A stretch of DNA of 64,000 nt from Dehalococcoidia bacterium (lineage in GTDB: Bacteria > Chloroflexota > Dehalococcoidia > UBA2979). Shown here piece after piece: positions 53,370 to 61,117 of the stretch. The DNA lies in the NCBI GenBank assembly GCA_965262725.1, contig OZ253555.1, positions 1,536,001-1,600,000 of the forward strand. Reading direction: 5' to 3'. The notes under the pieces are model-generated. The model was not told the DNA's origin. It saw only the letters and a list, made by a program, of their open reading frames with translations, and made no database searches. The stretch's first letter is position 1. Each line of letters starts with the position of its first letter. The translations under genes were made by a program, and so were the position numbers.

Positions 53370-55279
53370 GAGCCTGGTGTTTTTGTGGGGCGGTGGGTGC
53401 CTTCTGGAGGCGGGGCATCGTTGCGAGCAGTCACGGAATGCGATCATGTTGGTGATCAGTTCTGTTCGCAGCGAAAGTCTCGCTCATGACACAGGGAGAG
53501 ACCTCCAGGCAGCCCCTTACCTTCTTCAAGAGCACCGCCTACCTCGCTGAGAGGGTCCCCGGGAACTCCATCTGGACCCTCCTTGCCCGCCACGGCGAGC
53601 GCCTCTTCCCCGACGAGATGTTCGCCGACCTCTTCTCCGCTCGCGGCCGCGGGAGCGTTCCGCCACGGGTCGTCGCCACGGTCATGGTGCTGCAGCGTCT
53701 CCACGGCCTGTCCGACCGCGAGGCGGTGGCTGCCTTCGAGTGGGACGCCCGCTGGAAGTTCGCCTGCGGCGGACTCGACTACGACGCGCCGGGCTTCGTG
53801 CACACGGTCCTGGTCTCGATGCGGGCTCGCCTCGCCCGCTCCGAGCGCCCCCGGCGCATCTTCGAGGCCACGCTCGCGGTGGCGCGCGAGGCGAAGCTGC
53901 TCTCTGCTCAGCGTGTGCTGGACTCCACGCCGCTCTACGACGCCGTCGCCACGCAGGACACGGTGACGTTGCTCCGCTCGTCGCTCCGCGGGCTGCTGCG
54001 GGAGGCGGAGAGCCTCGATGCGCCCGGACTCGGGGCCGAGCTGCGGGCGGTGCTGGAGCGCGATGACGACTACCGGGCCGCTGGGAAGCCTCCGTGCGAC
54101 TGGGAGGACCGCGAGGCCGCGCGGGCGCTCATCGACGAGCTGGCGGCCGATGTATCGCGCTGCCTGCGGGTGCTGGAGGGCCGGGAGCTCGACGGGCACG
54201 TCGAGCGGGCGGGCGAGCTCTGTGCGGCCGTGGTGGGGCAGGACCTCGAGCAGGACGACGGCGGGCGCTTCGTGATTGCGCGGCGGGTAGCGAGGGACCG
54301 CATCATCTCGACCGTGGACACCGACGCCCGCCACGGACGCAAGAGCTCCGCGCACGGCTTCGACGGCTACAAGGGCCATCTGGCGGTCGACCCGGAGTCG
54401 GAGCTCATCACCCACACGACGGTGACCGCGGGCAACGTGGCGGACGGGGAGGTTGCGGAGGAGTTGATCACGGACCTGCTGGAGGACGCAGGGGCACACG
54501 ACTTAGCCGCCGACGCGGCTGCGGAGGCGAGCACCGGGACACCGACGGTCTACGGCGATTCGGCCTACGGCTCGGGCGCGTTCCAGGAGGTGCTGGAGCA
54601 GCACGGGGTCGAGTCCCGCTGCCGCACTCAGAGAGCGACCGCGCCGCATCAGCACTTCAGCAAGGAGCGATTCACCATCGACCTGGAGAGGGGCACCGTG
54701 ACCTGCCCCGCGGAGGTGACGGTGCCGATTCGCCGCGCCTCCGACGGCTCGGGAACCGCCTGCTTCCGGGGCGCCTGCAGCCCCTGTCCGCTTCGCGCGC
54801 AGTGCACCACATCGCGCGGGGGACGCACCGTCGCGGTGGGCGTCCACGAGGCCAGTCTCGCGGCCGCCCGGGCACGCCAGGAGACTCCCGGGTGGCTATC
54901 CGGCTACCGCGCGGTCCGCTCGCGAGTCGAACGCAAGGTGGCGCATACGACCCGTCGCAGACACGGGGGCCGCGTCGCCCGTGTCCGGGGCCGTCTCAAG
55001 GTCGACGCCGACCACAATCTGCTCGCCGCCTCCGTCAACCTGGCGCGGTTGGCGGTCCTGGGCCTGCATCACACACCAACCCGGTGGGCGGTCACAGCGC
55101 CCTCGTAGGGGAGACGGAGGCGGGGGCGACTGCGGGAGAGCCTGCGTCCGGGGGTCCCCGGGTCGATGCCGGCCCCGCTCACTCCCCAGCGGCGCAACTC
55201 CCGACCCGCGCCCACCCGACGCTACACTTCCCTCTCACACCGACTGCGGCCGCCGTGACTCGAGTTTGGCACCAGCGTC
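53370..55279 (+). mobile_element. IS1182-family insertion sequence
   Basis: Imperfect terminal IRs GAGCCTGGTG / CACCAGCGTC (8/10), flanked by CTAG direct repeats at 53366-69 and 55280-83. Confidence 0.85.
53486..55108 (+). CDS. IS1182-family transposase
   Basis: DUF772-like N-terminus (GR.S.PP...LQ...GLSDREA), LDST, D.DARHG.K, GYK.H, D..YG, Cys cluster CP...C..CPLR..C and R..VE. Confidence 0.9.
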   Translation: MTQGETSRQPLTFFKSTAYLAERVPGNSIWTLLARHGERLFPDEMFADLFSARGRGSVPPRVVATVMVLQRLHGLSDREAVAAFEWDARWKFACGGLDYDAPGFVHTVLVSMRARLARSERPRRIFEATLAVAREAKLLSAQRVLDSTPLYDAVATQDTVTLLRSSLRGLLREAESLDAPGLGAELRAVLERDDDYRAAGKPPCDWEDREAARALIDELAADVSRCLRVLEGRELDGHVERAGELCAAVVGQDLEQDDGGRFVIARRVARDRIISTVDTDARHGRKSSAHGFDGYKGHLAVDPESELITHTTVTAGNVADGEVAEELITDLLEDAGAHDLAADAAAEASTGTPTVYGDSAYGSGAFQEVLEQHGVESRCRTQRATAPHQHFSKERFTIDLERGTVTCPAEVTVPIRRASDGSGTACFRGACSPCPLRAQCTTSRGGRTVAVGVHEASLAAARARQETPGWLSGYRAVRSRVERKVAHTTRRRHGGRVARVRGRLKVDADHNLLAASVNLARLAVLGLHHTPTRWAVTAPS

Positions 55280-55610
55280 CTAGTGTCCTGAATTGGAAAT
55301 GCGATTGAGATATCCGGTGAGGTTGGTGTGTCCCGAAGTCGAAGGGCGGGTGACGTGATGACGTAACCGGTCTGGAGACATGCTCGTCGTTGCCAGCCGG
55401 TGCGAGTCCGGCACGGGTAACTGTCAGGAGGCCCGTTAGCAGGTCGGCGGCGCGGACGGGAAACGGTCCACGTCGAAGCCCGACGTCAAGAGCCCTATCA
55501 GGGGGAGCAACCAAGCGGTCCGCAGCATCAAGCGAAGCCTGCCTGGGAATGATGCTTACATCTGGCCCCACTTTGATCCTCTGATCTGGCCCCACCCCCG
55601 GGGACCGGGA

Positions 55611-56393
55611 TCAGGTCGTTGGGGCACCTCCTCTCGGGGAGGTCGAGGCCCGGAGCCGGTAGGACTCGGTGCCGGTCTCGATGATATGGGCACGGTAGGT
55701 GAGGCGGTCAACGACGGCCGCGGCGAGACGAGGGTCGGTGAAGATGCGGCCCCACTCGGAGAACGGGGAGTTGGAGGCGACGGCGACCGATGCCCGTTCC
55801 TCGCGCTCGGTCAGGATCTGGAACAGCATTTCGGCACCGCGCGGGTCGAGGTGGACGTACCCGAACTCATCCAGGCAGAGCAGGTCGAGGCGGCCGTAGC
55901 GGGCGACGAGGCGTGAGAGCGCGCGATCATCCGACGCTTCGGCCAGTTCATTCACCAGGGCGGCCGTGGTCATGTACCGCACGCGCAGCCCCAGGTGGCA
56001 GGCGGCCATGCCGAGGCCGATGAGCAGGTGTGACTTCCCGGTGCCGCTGTCACCGAGCAGGACGACGGGCTCGCCCCTTTCGACCCAGTCGCAGCGCTCC
56101 AGCGTGGCGAGCGCCGGCGCGTCGACTGTCGGCGCCGCCTCGAGGTCGAAGTCGGCGAGGTACTTGAAACGCGGGAACCGCGCCTCGACGATACGGCGCT
56201 GACGGCGCCGCTCCTCACGGTCATCGCGTTCGGCTCCCAGCACTTCGGCGAGATAGCCCAGATGGGTGATCCGGTCTCGGACCGCGGCTTCGGCGAGCGG
56301 GAGCGCCTGCTTCCTGACGGTGGGGAGACGGAGCTCGCGGCAGATCGCCTCGATTGTCAGCTCCGCGGCCTGGTCGGTGAGGGGTGCTGTCAT
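55611..56393 (-). CDS. istB: IS21 helper ATPase IstB
   Basis: LRLP, ARFP, GDSGTGKSHL, LDEFGY, SN.PFSEW and DRL. Confidence 0.95.
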   Translation of the reverse strand: MTAPLTDQAAELTIEAICRELRLPTVRKQALPLAEAAVRDRITHLGYLAEVLGAERDDREERRRQRRIVEARFPRFKYLADFDLEAAPTVDAPALATLERCDWVERGEPVVLLGDSGTGKSHLLIGLGMAACHLGLRVRYMTTAALVNELAEASDDRALSRLVARYGRLDLLCLDEFGYVHLDPRGAEMLFQILTEREERASVAVASNSPFSEWGRIFTDPRLAAAVVDRLTYRAHIIETGTESYRLRASTSPRGGAPTT

Positions 56394-56409
56394 CGGGTGC
56401 CTCCTGTGG

Positions 56410-58044
56410 TCAGCGTGCCGTCGACACCGCAGCGGTGACGGCGGTTGTGGTGGTGTGCGACGCGTTCTCGGCAGACCGCGGAGCGCGGGAGCGCCCGCCC
56501 GGCGACGTGCCGGGCCATCGGGAATCACCCGAGAGCAGCGCATCGTAGCCATCGAGGAGCGGGGCAGGTCGGTCGTAGCGCTCCAGGTGCGGTCTCTCGA
56601 CGGCGGCGTCTGGTGGCCTGCGGTCGGCGAGACGGCGCGCCTCGATGGCGACCAGTTCGGGGTTCACCGACTGGATCCTGTTGACCGTCCCGAGCGCGGC
56701 GTGCACCGCCGTGAAGGGAAGATGGCGATGCAGGAGCAGGACCTCGATGTACGCCTGCGTGCCCGCGCGGTCGCCGAGCTTGCGGCGGGCGCGGTCCCAG
56801 AAGCGCTGATGCTCGGCTGTGACGTGTCCCTTCGCACGCGCCTGCTGGAGCGCCACCGAGCCCGGGACCGCCCCGGGCTTGCGCGCGAGCACCTCCAGAT
56901 AGTGGTCGAGCAGCAGGACCTCTGCTCCGGTGCGGGCGCTGCGCTCGTGGTGGGCGACTTCACGCCCCTCGGCCCACACGGTCAGGCTGTTCCCGGACAG
57001 CCGCACGTCCAGCTTCCGGCCTGCATAGGCCGCCGGGACCGAGTAGCGGGAGCTACGCACGGCGATGCGCGCCTTGCGGTCGACCTTCGCGCGCAGCGGG
57101 ATTGACGGGTCGAAGCGCTCCGCCGGAAGCGGACGCAGCGAGGCCTTCTCGTTCTCTCCCATCTCGCCGACGGTGGCGAGGCGGCTCTCGATGTGCCGGG
57201 CGTCGTCGGTGCGGTCCGCCTCCCGCACTCGTTCGTTCAGCTCGCCGAGGGTCGCCACCTTCGGGACCGGCACGAAGTGCCGCCGGCGGAAGCGGCCGAC
57301 CTCGCCCTCCACACCGCCCTTCTCGTGCGCGCCCTCGATGCCGGGCTCACAGAAGAAGCTGTCGAAGCCGTAATGCGAGCGGAGCGCGATGAAGCGCTCG
57401 GTCTGCAGGCGCTCGCGTCCCTGCAGCACGGTGGTGACGGCCGCCGTCAGATTGTCGTAGCGGATGCGCCGCGGCACTCCGCCGAGCCGCTCGAAGGCGA
57501 CCACGTGCCCCTCGAGCAGAGACTCCTGGCCCTCGCCGACGAAGCAGACGTGCGCCGCCCGCCCCGAATGCGAGAGCCGCATCACGAACATCGCCAGCCG
57601 GGTCTCGACGCCCTCCAGCCACACCGTCACCGTGCCGAAGTCGACCTCCGCCTCCTCGCCGGGAGGATGGACCTGCGGGATCGTCACAACCGCGCGCCCG
57701 CCCTGGATCTCGCGACGCAGGCGCGCGACGCAGGCGCGGACCGTGGGCTCGGCCACCGTCGCCCCGTGTTCGTCGACGAGGCGCTCCCAGATGCGCCGGG
57801 CCGTGTGCCGCTGCTTGCGCGGCGCGCTGAGGTCGTCCACGAGCCAGCCCCGGATGACCGAGACGTACGGCCCGAGCTTCGGGGCCACGCGGGTCGCCTG
57901 CTTGCGTTCCGGGGGTATCGCCGACCCAAGAGCCTGCCGCACCGTGCGCCGGTGCACGCCATGCCGGCGTCCCAGCTCATGGATCGACAGCTCCTCCTCC
58001 CTCGCCATCCGTCGGATAGACTCGAACAGCTCCACTCTCGACAC
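56410..58044 (-). CDS. istA: IS21 transposase IstA
   Basis: HTH (HRRTVR.AL), PRKQRHTA.RI, EVDFG, YDN, KG.VEG.V and YSVP. Confidence 0.95.
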   Translation of the reverse strand: MSRVELFESIRRMAREEELSIHELGRRHGVHRRTVRQALGSAIPPERKQATRVAPKLGPYVSVIRGWLVDDLSAPRKQRHTARRIWERLVDEHGATVAEPTVRACVARLRREIQGGRAVVTIPQVHPPGEEAEVDFGTVTVWLEGVETRLAMFVMRLSHSGRAAHVCFVGEGQESLLEGHVVAFERLGGVPRRIRYDNLTAAVTTVLQGRERLQTERFIALRSHYGFDSFFCEPGIEGAHEKGGVEGEVGRFRRRHFVPVPKVATLGELNERVREADRTDDARHIESRLATVGEMGENEKASLRPLPAERFDPSIPLRAKVDRKARIAVRSSRYSVPAAYAGRKLDVRLSGNSLTVWAEGREVAHHERSARTGAEVLLLDHYLEVLARKPGAVPGSVALQQARAKGHVTAEHQRFWDRARRKLGDRAGTQAYIEVLLLHRHLPFTAVHAALGTVNRIQSVNPELVAIEARRLADRRPPDAAVERPHLERYDRPAPLLDGYDALLSGDSRWPGTSPGGRSRAPRSAENASHTTTTAVTAAVSTAR

Positions 58045-58530
58045 ACTCCTCTTCCCTCGCTCCGGGAGTCATGCAGTCACCCGAGCGTAGGTCCTGGATG
58101 GGTCGGGGGTGGGGCCAATTCAAAGGATCAAAACGGCTCCAGGTGGGGCCAATTCAGAGCATCATTCCCACCTGCCGCGTCGTTAACGGATAGTGGAGGA
58201 GCCGAGCCCGGCAATTCAGGGCGAAGGCCATGGACGAGGTGAAGATCCTGAATGCGCGTTGCGCTGCAGCCTCAAGGAACCTCCCGGCGTAAGGGGCGTG
58301 GAACGTTTGGAAGGTAGCGACGGGAACGGGAGAAGCCCTCCCCGGCCCGGCACCCTGCGAGATGGTGTCGGAGCGAGGTGCCCTATAACCGGTCAAAGCC
58401 GGGAAGTGGGCAGCTAGCCGGAAGGGTGACGGAGGGGGTCGTAGTACCGCTTGAGCCGGACGGACAACACAACCGCCGGTGATGGGAAGGACCCCTGCTT
58501 TGCTCACGCGTGGGGAGTAGGGATGAATCG

Positions 58531-60730
58531 GTGAGTGCCCAAGCGGCTAACTCCATCCAAGACAAGGTCCGAACACTACAACGCACGCTTTACCGGGCGG
58601 CCAAGGCCGACCCCAATAGACGCTTTCATGCGCTCTACGACAAGGTTTATCGCAGAGACATTCTGGAGCGCGCGTGGGAGCAGGTGCGTCGCAATCGCGG
58701 CGCAGCCGGTATCGACGGCGTCACGCTCGCCGAGGTCGAGCGCTACGGCGTGGAGCGCCTGCTGGATGAACTGGCCACGGAACTGAAGGAGGGAAGATAC
58801 CGGGTGCAGCCGAGCCGCCGGGTCTGGATACCCAAGCCCGGTCGGTCGGAAGAGCGCCCGCTCTCGATTCCTTCGGTCCGCGACCGCATCGTGCAGGCGT
58901 CGCTGAAGCTCGTGACGGAGCCGGTCTTCGAGGCCGACTTCCTGCCATGCAGCTTCGGCTTCCGCCCGAAGCGTTCGGCCCATGACGCCCTGCAGGTCCT
59001 CATTGACGAGGCGTGGCGGGGCAGGCGGTGGGTAGTGGAGACGGACATCGCCTCGTGTTTCGAGTCGATACCGCGTGCGTCCGGAAGTCGAAGGGGTGGT
59101 GACGTGATGACGTGACCGGTCCGGAGACATGCTCGTTGCTGCCAGCCGGTGAGAGTCCGGCACGGGTAACTGTCAGGAGGCCCGTTAGCAGGTCGGCGGC
59201 GTGGACGGGAAACGGTCTGCGTCGAAGCCCGACGTCAAGAGCCCTATGAGGGGGAGCAAACGTGCGGTCCGCAGCATGACGCGAAGTCTGCCGCGCCGTG
59301 AGACTCGCCTGTCTATTGACAGGACCAAGGAGGAGCCGAGCCCGGGTGGTCAGGGCGAAGGCCATGGACGAGGTGAAGATCCTGGAATGCAGCCTCAAGA
59401 AACCTCCCGGCGTATGGGACGTGGAACGTACGGAAGGTAGCGACGGGAACCGGAGAAGCCCTCCCCGGCCCGGCACCCTGTGAGAGGGCGTCGGAGCGAG
59501 GCGTCCTATAACCGGTCAGAGCCGGGAAGTGGACAGCCAGCCGGAAGGGTGGCGGAGGGGGTCGTAGTACCGCTGGAGCCGGACGGACAACATAACCGCC
59601 GGTGATGGGAAGGACCCCTACTTTGTCCGTGCATGTTGCTGGGGGTGTGGACTGGTGAGTGCCCCTCGGGGCTAGCAACCACTTGGTAGGGTTCGAGGCT
59701 CTCCGCACATGCTGTACCGGCTGGCCAAGGCACGACCCACGTTGTGGGGAGCGCTGCATGCCATCTGGTGAAGGGCATCGGTGAGCCGGATGAGGGAGAA
59801 CCTCACGTCCGGTTCGATGTGGCAGGGGCTGGAGACGGACGCTGCTATGGCCGTGGAGTTGGGCACCACCGGGAAACCGGCTTGGAACTGATGCGCCACC
59901 GCCTACGGCTCGCACCGCGCCAGCCCCTGACCCTACACGACCGTCTGATGACGGCCGTCGAGGAACGGATATGCGACCGCAATCTCCTGAAGCTGGTACG
60001 GGCGATGCTGCGTGCCGGTGTGATGGAGTCGGGGGTCGTGCAGCACAGCGCGACGGGTACGCCGCAGGGCGGGGTGATGTCCCCGCTGCTGGCCAATGTC
60101 TACCTGCACCGGTTGGACCGGGACTGGGAGGCGAAGGGTGATGGCGTGCTGGTGCGCTATGCGGATGACCTCGTGGTGCTCTGCCGGAGCCGGGAGGAAG
60201 CGGAGCGGGCGTTGGCCCTGCTGCGTGACCTGCTGGGTGAGCTCGGACTGGAGCTCAAGGCGGAGAAGACGCGCATCGTGCACCTGCGGGAGGGAGGCGA
60301 GGGGCTGGAGTTCCTCGGCTTCGAGCATCGCTGGGTACGTGCGAAGCGCAACAAGAATATCCAGTTCCTCGCACGCTGGCCCTCACGGCGAGCGATGCAG
60401 CGGGCGCGGGACCGCATCCGTGAAATCACGGCGCGGTTGCGTCTGCTGCTGAGTCCCCGGCAGGTCGTGGAGGAAGTCAATCGCTACCTCCGCGGCTGGA
60501 TGAGCTACTTCCGCTACGGCAACTCGGCGAGGGCGTTCGACGTCCTGCACTGGTTTGCCATGTGGAGACTCAAACTCTGGCTGGGGAAGCGGTTGCGTTG
60601 GCGGCGACGCCATCGCGGGCACCCGTTTCCCGTCGCCGACCGTCTGGGGCTCATCTCGCTAGCTGGACAGCGCGTCGTGGCACCACGGCCATATCGACCG
60701 TGGCGGGGCACCCCGCATGCCGCCCGGTGA
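58531..60730 (+). CDS. ltrA: Group II intron reverse transcriptase/maturase, join(58531..59074,59937..60730), 445 aa, no En domain
   Basis: GAAGIDG, IPKP...RPL.IP..RDRIVQ, SFGFRP, DI..CF..IPH across the junction, GTPQGG..SPLL.N.YL, YADD, FLGF and X-domain GW..YF. Confidence 0.92.
59075..59936 (+). ncRNA. Inner ORF-less group II intron (862 nt) inserted in the RT gene
   Basis: 5' GTGCG, colinear and highly similar to the outer intron RNA, domain V at 59783-815, 3' CCCTGACCCTAC. Removal gives ATA CCG C|AC GAC CGT (IPHDR) in frame. Confidence 0.93.
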
Positions 60731-61070
60731 AGGGCATCGGTGAGCCGGATGAGGGAAAACCTCACGTCCGGTTCGAGGCGGCAGGGGCTGGAGACGGACG
60801 ATGCTACGGCTGTGGAGATGGGCGCCACCGGGAAACCGGCCTGGCAATATGCGCCACCGCCTACGGCTCGCACCGCGCCAGCCCCTGACCCTACTCAAGG
60901 ATCTGGTCCGCGGACTTGTGCCAGATGAAGCGCCTCCGGTGCTCGTTTCCAGTTGCGACCCAAGCCTCCACTGAGCGGACCAGGCCTGCGAGGCTCGGTG
61001 CGATTGTTTTCAGCATTTGCAACTCGGGACACTAGGAGGCCTCCCGCGGTCGGCCGGCCCGGAAACCAGA

Positions 61071-61093
61071 ACGGGCGCCCCGAGGGCGCCCGT
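61071..61093 (-). terminator. Intrinsic terminator-like hairpin downstream of the ferredoxin
   Basis: ACGGGCGCCC-CGA-GGGCGCCCGT, followed by TCTGGTTT on the minus strand. Confidence 0.6.
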
Positions 61094-61117
61094 CAGGGAT
61101 GCGGCCCTGCGCCCGGG

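Follow-up and report, generated by a model that had tools for sequence, protein, structure and literature searches.

A group II intron with two nested mobile elements inside an IS630-family miniature transposable element of a Dehalococcoidia genome

We describe a nest of mobile elements in the genome of a Dehalococcoidia bacterium (assembly GCA_965262725.1), in which a 181-bp miniature inverted-repeat transposable element (MITE) of the IS630 family is split by a group II intron, here called intron A. Intron A itself contains an insertion sequence (IS) of the IS21 family and a second group II intron without an open reading frame (ORF), here called intron B. The window that was analysed is a stretch of 64,000 nucleotides, positions 1536001-1600000 of a single 3.67-Mb contig (OZ253555.1) with 70.6% G+C, and all positions given below are those of the window unless they are called genome positions or refer to other copies in the genome. 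The locus has the following features.

53371..55279, plus strand: insertion sequence of the IS1182 family adjoining the MITE; limits approximate, read from its ends
55281..55282, no strand: left TA target-site duplication, within C-TA-G; the same C-TA is found at 4/4 empty copies and at the IS-disrupted copy
55283..55325, no strand: left arm of the MITE, 43 bp, with the terminal inverted repeat at 55283-55302; it is the 5' exon of intron A and is homologous to the 3' end of the IS630-family element
55326..60894, plus strand: group II intron A, 5569 bp here and 2074 bp without its two insertions; it starts with GTGTG and ends with CCCTAC
55538..55543, no strand: 6-bp direct repeat CCTGCC, with the second copy at 58171-58176; target duplication of the IS21-family element
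55544..58170, minus strand: IS21-family element, 2627 bp, within domain 1 of intron A; istA at 58044-56410 and istB at 56552-55611
58510..59074, plus strand: reverse-transcriptase/maturase ORF of intron A, part 1, 188 codons; Pfam RVT_1 profile positions 1-83, TIGR04416 positions 2-137
59075..59936, plus strand: ORF-less group II intron B, 862 bp; it starts with GTGCG and ends with CCCTAC; Rfam RF02003 and RF00029
59937..60730, plus strand: reverse-transcriptase/maturase ORF of intron A, part 2; Pfam RVT_1 positions 84-204 and GIIM
60895..61032, no strand: right arm of the MITE, 138 bp, with the terminal inverted repeat at 61013-61032; it is the 3' exon of intron A
55283..61016, minus strand: remnant 55-codon ORF of the MITE, 61016-60895 joined to 55325-55283, split by intron A
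61033..61034, no strand: right TA target-site duplication (TA-G)

The left side of the MITE opens with C-TA at 55280-55282 and TA-G at 61033-61035 closes the right side. When the two arms are joined at 55325/60895, a minus-strand ORF of 55 codons runs from an ATG at 61016-61014 to a stop at 55282-55280, and its translation is identical to the peptide given in a first-pass annotation of this DNA. That annotation had recognised the split MITE and its 55-codon ORF correctly, but its arms of 42 and 137 bp have to be revised to 43 and 138 bp, and the 179 bp of the rejoined element to 181 bp, because each junction had been placed one base off. The cargo of 5569 bp between the arms is not the single intron that had been supposed. 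It is composed of intron A, the IS21-family element and intron B, and this copy of intron A is broken. A search of the insert with Rfam gave four matches, all on the plus strand: two to domains 1 to 4 (55394-55530 and 59143-59279) and two to domains 5 and 6 (59781-59936 and 60740-60807). Within 8 kb we find nested an IS1182-type end, IS630 elements, the MITE, two introns and the IS21-family element. Neither the MITE nor the relic ORF is called as a gene.

The ends and the copies of the 181-bp element show what it is. Its terminal inverted repeats agree with each other at 17 of their first 20 positions, and an inverted-repeat search found arms of 28 nt that are 86% complementary, the CTAG context included, much more than chance would produce. 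Searching the genome with the rejoined 185 bp (TA, the 181 bp and TA) returned four uninterrupted copies elsewhere, with identities of 100, 99.5, 96.2 and 95.7%, and one copy split by a 2375-bp IS with an 8-bp duplication (positions 1-161, and the last 32 bp beyond the IS). The query also matched seven right arms and nine left arms at intron ends, this locus counted. Seven MITEs are filled by the intron, which is 7 of the 12 complete copies. C-TA stands before every left end that was examined, and TA-G follows the right end in all four empty copies and in the seven filled MITEs. The right arm consists of a stretch of about 108 bp, which has its relative in the 3' part of a transposase gene, and about 30 bp from a different 5' end.

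The element is short and has no transposase gene of its own, but its relic ORF can still be placed. The 55-residue peptide aligns with residues 333-380 of the 380-residue transposase (genome positions 1528827-1529969) of a resident IS630-family element with 34 of 48 residues identical (71%, E 1e-22); searched alone, it matched no NCBIfam family. Judged by these sequence features, the 181-bp element is a real IS630-family MITE, apparently a deletion derivative. The first-pass annotation had proposed as much, and the empty copies, the TA duplication in CTAG and the resemblance of the relic to the C-terminus of an IS630-family transposase bear it out. The genome search that it had suggested for the rejoined element yielded the four empty and seven intron-filled copies and a full-length relative at 82% identity, so that both IS630 similarity and further copies are present. 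Elements of the IS630 family are documented to duplicate TA and to transpose by cut and paste (PMC2170065), and they reportedly prefer CTAG; the C-TA...TA-G ends of the MITE copies agree with this signature.

The full-length relative is 1174 bp long and came to light through seven further matches at 82% over positions 1-153 of the MITE query; it is the final 153 bp of this element to which the MITE shows the 82% identity. Its transposase matches Pfam DDE_3 (E 8e-24) and the NCBIfam model NF033545 "IS630 family transposase" with 270.8 bits (cut-off 100). Uninterrupted copies of this IS are found six times at at least 99.9% identity and once at 96%. The ends of the MITE agree with the ends of the IS at 14-15 of 20 positions, and the two ends of the IS agree with each other at 13 of 20. 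Since the MITE ends resemble the IS ends as well as these resemble each other, cross-mobilisation is plausible but unproven. Five of the seven uninterrupted IS630 copies (genome positions 187877, 740821, 1416429, 1630124 and 3509241) have a common 40-bp flank at the 3' side of the transposase gene and differ on the other side. Either the IS has repeatedly hit the end of another repeated element, or it travels together with that element.

A similar association is seen at the left side of our locus, where the MITE abuts the right end of an IS1182-family element. The transposase ORF of this element at 53486-55108 matches NCBIfam NF033551 with 291.9 bits (cut-off 270) and Pfam DDE_Tnp_1_6 and DUF772, and its left end reads CTAG followed by GAGCCTGGTG at about 53367. 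Its right-end sequence is present in six genome copies. In five of these a MITE lies in the abutting CTAG, in either orientation, and the sixth (genome position 2496926) is unoccupied. Other IS630 and MITE copies are likewise flanked by sequence that resembles the ends of further repeated elements. The tetranucleotide CTAG is about five-fold under-represented in this genome, with 2073 occurrences observed against 9903 expected, and this scarcity may concentrate elements that seek TA or CTAG at each other's ends. A composite transposon associated with IS630 was reportedly described by Tenzen and Ohtsubo in 1991, whose title is said to mention insertion at TA, preferentially in CTAG.

These copies also bear on whether the 181-bp unit was ever mobile. 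It could be a decayed stump, produced when IS630 copies underwent the same deletion where they stood, or multiplied through segmental duplication only, and some copies do share flanks: the copy at 2585218 with that at 1422619, and this locus with the copy at 297762 on the left. Against this, the flanks vary by locus and at least nine loci differ in sequence just outside the TA on at least one side, all of them keeping C-TA...TA-G. The internal deletion junction is identical in all MITE copies, and MITEs next to the IS1182-type end point in either direction, with one such end left empty. We therefore regard the stump as highly improbable and treat the unit as a mobile MITE.

Intron A is a well-supported group II intron. 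It matches RF02003 at 55394-55530 with 95.3 bits (gathering score 49) and RF00029 at 60740-60807 with 41.5 bits (gathering score 40). Its protein has the RVT_1 domain, split between profile positions 83 and 84, and GIIM. The two TIGR04416 matches, positions 2-137 with 172.4 bits and 139-352 with 217.5 bits, each fail to reach the cut-off of 300, as intron B divides the gene. No endonuclease domain was recognised in the intron A protein, for which Pfam shows RVT_1 and GIIM only.

The target of intron A is constant. All 12 copies of the intron in the genome lie at the same site, ...CCGG[T/C]GAGGTTG^TCAAGG... (^ marks the junction), antisense to the transposase frame and about 43 bp from the tip of the element, near the 3' end of the IS or MITE. 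The first-pass annotation had expected an intron that lies antisense to the transposase and targets the conserved 3' end of the IS/MITE family, and the 12 of 12 copies agree with it. The hosts are seven MITEs, three full-length IS copies and two chimeras. An empty MITE (genome positions 2585218-2585401) and a filled one (1422619-1426980) have both flanks in common, which tells us that the intron entered a MITE that was already present. Introns A and B diverge most at two short segments of domain 1 (D1). In intron A these segments are CGGATA and CAACC, and they are complementary to the exon at -15..-10 and -5..-1.

Intron A costs the full-length IS very little coding sequence. In the filled copies the transposase frame keeps 366 of 380 amino acids and loses the last 14 residues. 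As only 14 codons are lost and the family profile ends at residue 347, a filled IS might stay autonomous. The two chimeras (genome positions 548384-552181 and 2978475-2975540) combine a left arm of 43 bp that is MITE-type (100%) with the full-length IS630 element (1-1131) on the right, and the reciprocal form, with the IS on the left and the MITE on the right, is absent from the 12 intron A copies. The chimeras could have arisen either by recombination between intron copies or by transposition of one chimera. Co-conversion of the 5' exon was also considered and judged less likely than these two, since the MITE-type sequence extends through all 43 bp to the extreme end of the arm.

Intron B lies precisely inside intron A, so that the two form a twintron. 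It matches RF02003 at 59143-59279 with 102.8 bits and RF00029 at 59781-59936 with 37.5 bits, the latter below the gathering score of 40. Its sequence is 86-91% identical to the ribozyme ends of intron A, and its limits were taken from direct repeats. When intron B is removed, the reverse-transcriptase gene of intron A becomes a continuous ORF of 452 codons (1359 nt) with a terminal stop only, and when it is retained a stop follows after 201 amino acids. The position of intron B inside this gene suggests that the protein could be made only after intron B has been spliced. Intron B interrupts the ORF at the same site in 12 of 12 intron A copies, and no junction without intron B was found in this genome; thus all reverse-transcriptase genes of intron A are split by it.

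In total we found 28 copies of intron B in the genome. Twelve are at this site in the copies of intron A, one is a tandem second copy, three are at the homologous site of a third intron family and 12 are ectopic. The ectopic sites have in common TCGAG, about five further bases and then C-Y-G-C at the junction, and the first D1 segment of intron B, ACTCG, is complementary to the CGAGT common to the targets of intron B. The tandem copy was observed at genome positions 549500-551223, where two intron B copies lie head to tail with no spacer within one copy of intron A. At genome positions 380620-382657 an intron B is inserted antisense at the start-codon region of one full-length IS630 copy. Contigs of sequencing runs X6 and X10, from two other organisms, join 59073 to 59936, as an intron A without intron B would, which hints at such a form elsewhere. 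Their shorter sides of 30 and 29 letters are below the bar of 31 letters for bridging a joint, and they are not counted as evidence.

The orientation of the copies follows the replication arms, as expected of an intron without endonuclease. The dnaA gene lies at genome positions 477809-479134, and the cumulative GC skew, which climbs from about 0.48 Mb onwards, peaks near 2.51 Mb before it drops again. Copies between 2.51 and 2.64 Mb, one of intron A and one ectopic copy of intron B, were set aside because the terminus is imprecisely placed. On the strand that serves as the lagging-strand template we find 9 of 11 copies of intron A and 11 of 11 ectopic copies of intron B (binomial p = 0.001). 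Among the targets of intron A, nine filled ones are in the favoured and two in the disfavoured orientation, compared with four and eight of the empty ones (Fisher p = 0.036). This difference between filled and empty targets indicates that most filled copies arose by homing.

Could the same pattern come mainly from homologous recombination or gene conversion among repeats, with introns copied at the DNA level from filled to empty alleles? The genome has many near-identical repeats of 1-3 kb, and the chimeric MITE/IS copies together with the repeated sharing of one flank mean that recombination, or the repeated use of hot spots, is active. A strand bias that follows the replication arms is not expected from recombination, though, and the 12 ectopic copies of intron B sit in unrelated sequences that have only a short motif complementary to a D1 segment, which is a hallmark of reverse splicing. 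We consider recombination an improbable source of most of the pattern, and homing into targets already present remains our explanation for the majority of filled copies.

Homing need not be the only way in which the filled units have spread. A filled MITE or IS might be an active composite, in which an IS630-family transposase acting in trans has moved the MITE with its intron cargo at least once; for the 5.7-kb cargo of this locus the first-pass annotation had suggested such a movement. The inverted ends and the TA repeats are intact at all seven filled MITEs, and the filled IS with its nearly complete transposase frame (366 of 380 amino acids, the family profile ending at 347) adds to this. 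An IS630-family element with a kanamycin marker, ISY100-kan, is transposed by purified transposase according to PMC2170065. Two filled copies, at genome positions 1183435-1186370 and 1453961-1451026, show 100% identity along 3121 bp, and their flanks differ on either side. They carry a private G-to-A change at position +5 of the 3' exon, which is present in none of the four empty and none of the five other filled MITEs, and the copy at 1453961 is in the orientation disfavoured for retrohoming. The two chimeric units, with MITE-type left arm, intron and IS, are likewise found at two sites with flanks that differ on both sides.

Each of these observations has another possible cause. The shared G-to-A change is only 5 bp from the intron border, and gene conversion between identical 3-kb repeats could spread it; alternatively, a variant MITE could have moved while empty and then have been filled twice. 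Recombination from intron to intron is also able to make chimeras. The copies of intron A are too alike for tracing their descent, with 0-3 differences from the reference copy in comparable parts. Furthermore, the orientation that favours retrohoming is seen in 9 of 11 filled targets and the empty targets are mostly opposite, a bias that frequent orientation-blind transposition would erase, so that movement of the whole unit is probably rare. On balance an active composite seems to us possible but rather unlikely. It is similarly doubtful, though conceivable, that the identical 3.1-kb filled MITEs and the chimeric filled units are products of such a DNA route. We would only tentatively suggest that a filled IS could carry the intron to new CTAG sites and replicons independently of homing at the replication fork.

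The youngest component of the locus is probably the IS21-family element. Its istA matches NCBIfam NF033546 with 239.7 bits (cut-off 160) and its istB matches Pfam IstB_IS21 (E 1e-60); its inverted ends are TGGGAATGATGC, and its insertion has duplicated the 6 bp CCTGCC. In runs X1, X5 and X6 there are contigs in which 55537 is joined to 58171, with six letters common to both sides. The element interrupts domain 1 and leaves this copy of intron A without a working ribozyme. The genome holds 14 full-length copies of the IS21-family element, and 6 of the 14 are inside group II intron sequence, at varied positions in intron A, intron B and the third family; by a rough estimate group II introns make up less than 2% of the genome. 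A reason for this clustering could be either a preference for intron DNA or a strong survival of the insertions that land there.

Outside this genome we found relatives of the components. The MITE was not found among the 40 relatives searched. Ends of the IS630 type resembling the 3' end are present in the relatives G004 and G008 at 81-86%, and a third, G034, gave one 21-nt match at chance level. Introns related to those of our locus, at 73-80%, occur at other targets in G003 and G008. In G003, a relative of the same genus, the intron (L013, contig C1 around 956907) is 80% identical to the 3' part of intron A and lies in a different target; judged by eye, the translation of its 3' exon looks like a transposase motif.

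Sequencing runs were also searched. At least 60% of the sampled words of 55200-61100 were found in 20 runs from 9 studies, and by these word matches elements of this locus are present in other samples. The matches say little about the MITE because most of the words belong to the introns and the IS21-family element. A contig of run X10 matches the unique right flank from 61032 on, and its other 645 letters fit nothing in 55000-61031, which is compatible with an unoccupied site in another organism. A contig of run X5 joins 55325 to 60947, with 34 letters on the shorter side, and this joint probably reflects a diverged empty copy.

Taken as a whole, the locus is best read as a series of nested insertions, and we hold this reading with high confidence. 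What can be seen directly in the genome is how the locus is built, how many copies there are, that the insertion site is constant, that empty and filled paralogues exist and that orientation is biased. The order of events that we infer from them is the following. The 181-bp MITE would have inserted with duplication of TA into a CTAG at the right end of the IS1182-family element. It had kept the last ~150 bp of the transposase-gene end, including the homing site of intron A, and intron A would then have retrohomed there, antisense to the old transposase frame. The most likely route is reverse splicing into the lagging-strand template at the replication fork, as for the intron RmInt1. Intron A may already have carried intron B, or may have gained it once in an ancestor. 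The IS21-family element would have come last, entering domain 1 of this copy and disabling the ribozyme. In this way the MITE serves as an additional landing pad and multiplies the homing sites of the intron. As both MITE ends and both TA repeats are retained, cut-and-paste movement by a resident transposase in trans is formally possible, but our results suggest that it happens rarely, if at all, for the whole unit.

Several observations weigh against this reading. Firstly, exact scans with the left (27 nt) and right (20 nt) ends of the MITE through one genome for each of 185,579 species gave 0 matches, although such scans miss diverged relatives. Secondly, no direct parent of the MITE was found in the genome, in the relatives or in the exact scans. 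The resident IS is only 82% identical, and of the last ~30 bp of the MITE only the terminal 9-10 bases are common with the 5' end of the IS, so that the resident IS is a relative and not the direct parent. With no direct parent found, we infer rather than observe a mobilisation by the resident transposase. Thirdly, two of the 11 intron A copies (genome positions 1453961 and 3118904) have the orientation that lagging-strand homing disfavours. Orientations may have been altered by rearrangements, but the local GC skew around these two copies is too noisy to reveal an inversion. The orientation statistics themselves take the copies to be independent of one another, rely on the gene order of today and place the terminus by GC skew only. 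Finally, simple homing does not explain the chimeric copies, and the assignment of exon-binding site 1 (EBS1) of intron B is ambiguous.

The nested insertions show how a site-specific retroelement can gain landing sites through a miniature derivative of a transposon, as 7 of the 12 intron copies are in MITEs and not in a full IS. They are also an example of mobile elements accumulating within one another in a genome with 70.6% G+C, in which CTAG is reduced to one fifth of expectation. Should the filled units turn out to move as DNA, we would have here a natural example of a retroelement that has gained a second mode of mobility from its host transposon, and it would bear on the spread of group II introns between replicons. 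Such nested repeats are likely drivers of rearrangement and a trap for annotation.

The closest known system is RmInt1 of Sinorhizobium meliloti, a group II intron of class D (IIB3) that homes in ISRm2011-2, an element of the IS630-Tc1 family; PMC4238363 states that splicing is needed for expression of the transposase and essential for the mobility of this IS. RmInt1 has no endonuclease and is described as preferring the lagging-strand template (PMC4238363, PMC8914252, PMC1802570). Intron A resembles it in lying in IS630-family DNA (12 of 12 copies), in the absence of an endonuclease domain from its protein and in the bias to the lagging-strand template. The comparison with RmInt1 and ISRm2011-2 made by the first-pass annotation is therefore apt for the target family. 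It goes less far for the insertion itself, since RmInt1 lies in the transposase coding region whereas intron A is antisense in 12 of 12 copies, 43 bp from the tip, and removes the last 14 codons. Intron A also differs from RmInt1 in being a twintron and in that its hosts are mostly MITE derivatives. The C-terminal half of its protein has its best match among Sinorhizobium plasmids at 29% over 78%, which may not be RmInt1 itself, compared with 61% for an intron of a Streptomyces plasmid.

The MITE is like other MITEs of the IS630/Tc1-mariner type in its length of 181 bp, its terminal inverted repeats, the TA duplication, the lack of a transposase, the many copies and the descent from the IS630 family. 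It is unlike the class in general in retaining the homing site of a group II intron, which is occupied in 7 of 12 complete copies. A literature search limited to titles and partial text found no other arrangement of an intron in a MITE. As the ISY100 mini-elements and, reportedly, the IS630 composite illustrate, a transposase can move foreign DNA between IS630-family ends into TA, with a preference for CTAG. In contrast to ISY100-kan, a laboratory construct, or constructs with two IS copies, the cargo here is a retroelement within a single MITE, and its movement as a unit is hypothetical.

The nesting of the two introns has precedents as well. Both bacteria and archaea have nested introns and introns that home into others, and trans mobilisation of derivatives that lack an ORF is known as well (PMC4424553, PMC2882425, PMC4649490). 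The twintron described here is like the nested introns of Methanosarcina acetivorans, the ORF-less and reverse-transcriptase-encoding introns of Thermosynechococcus elongatus and the twintron of Trichodesmium in its site-specific nesting, with intron B as an ORF-less relative of intron A. It may differ from them in that the inner intron splits the reverse-transcriptase ORF in each of the 12 outer copies. The locus is thus not a new kind of system but a variant of the known intron-in-transposon partnership of RmInt1 and ISRm2011-2, combined with a twintron.

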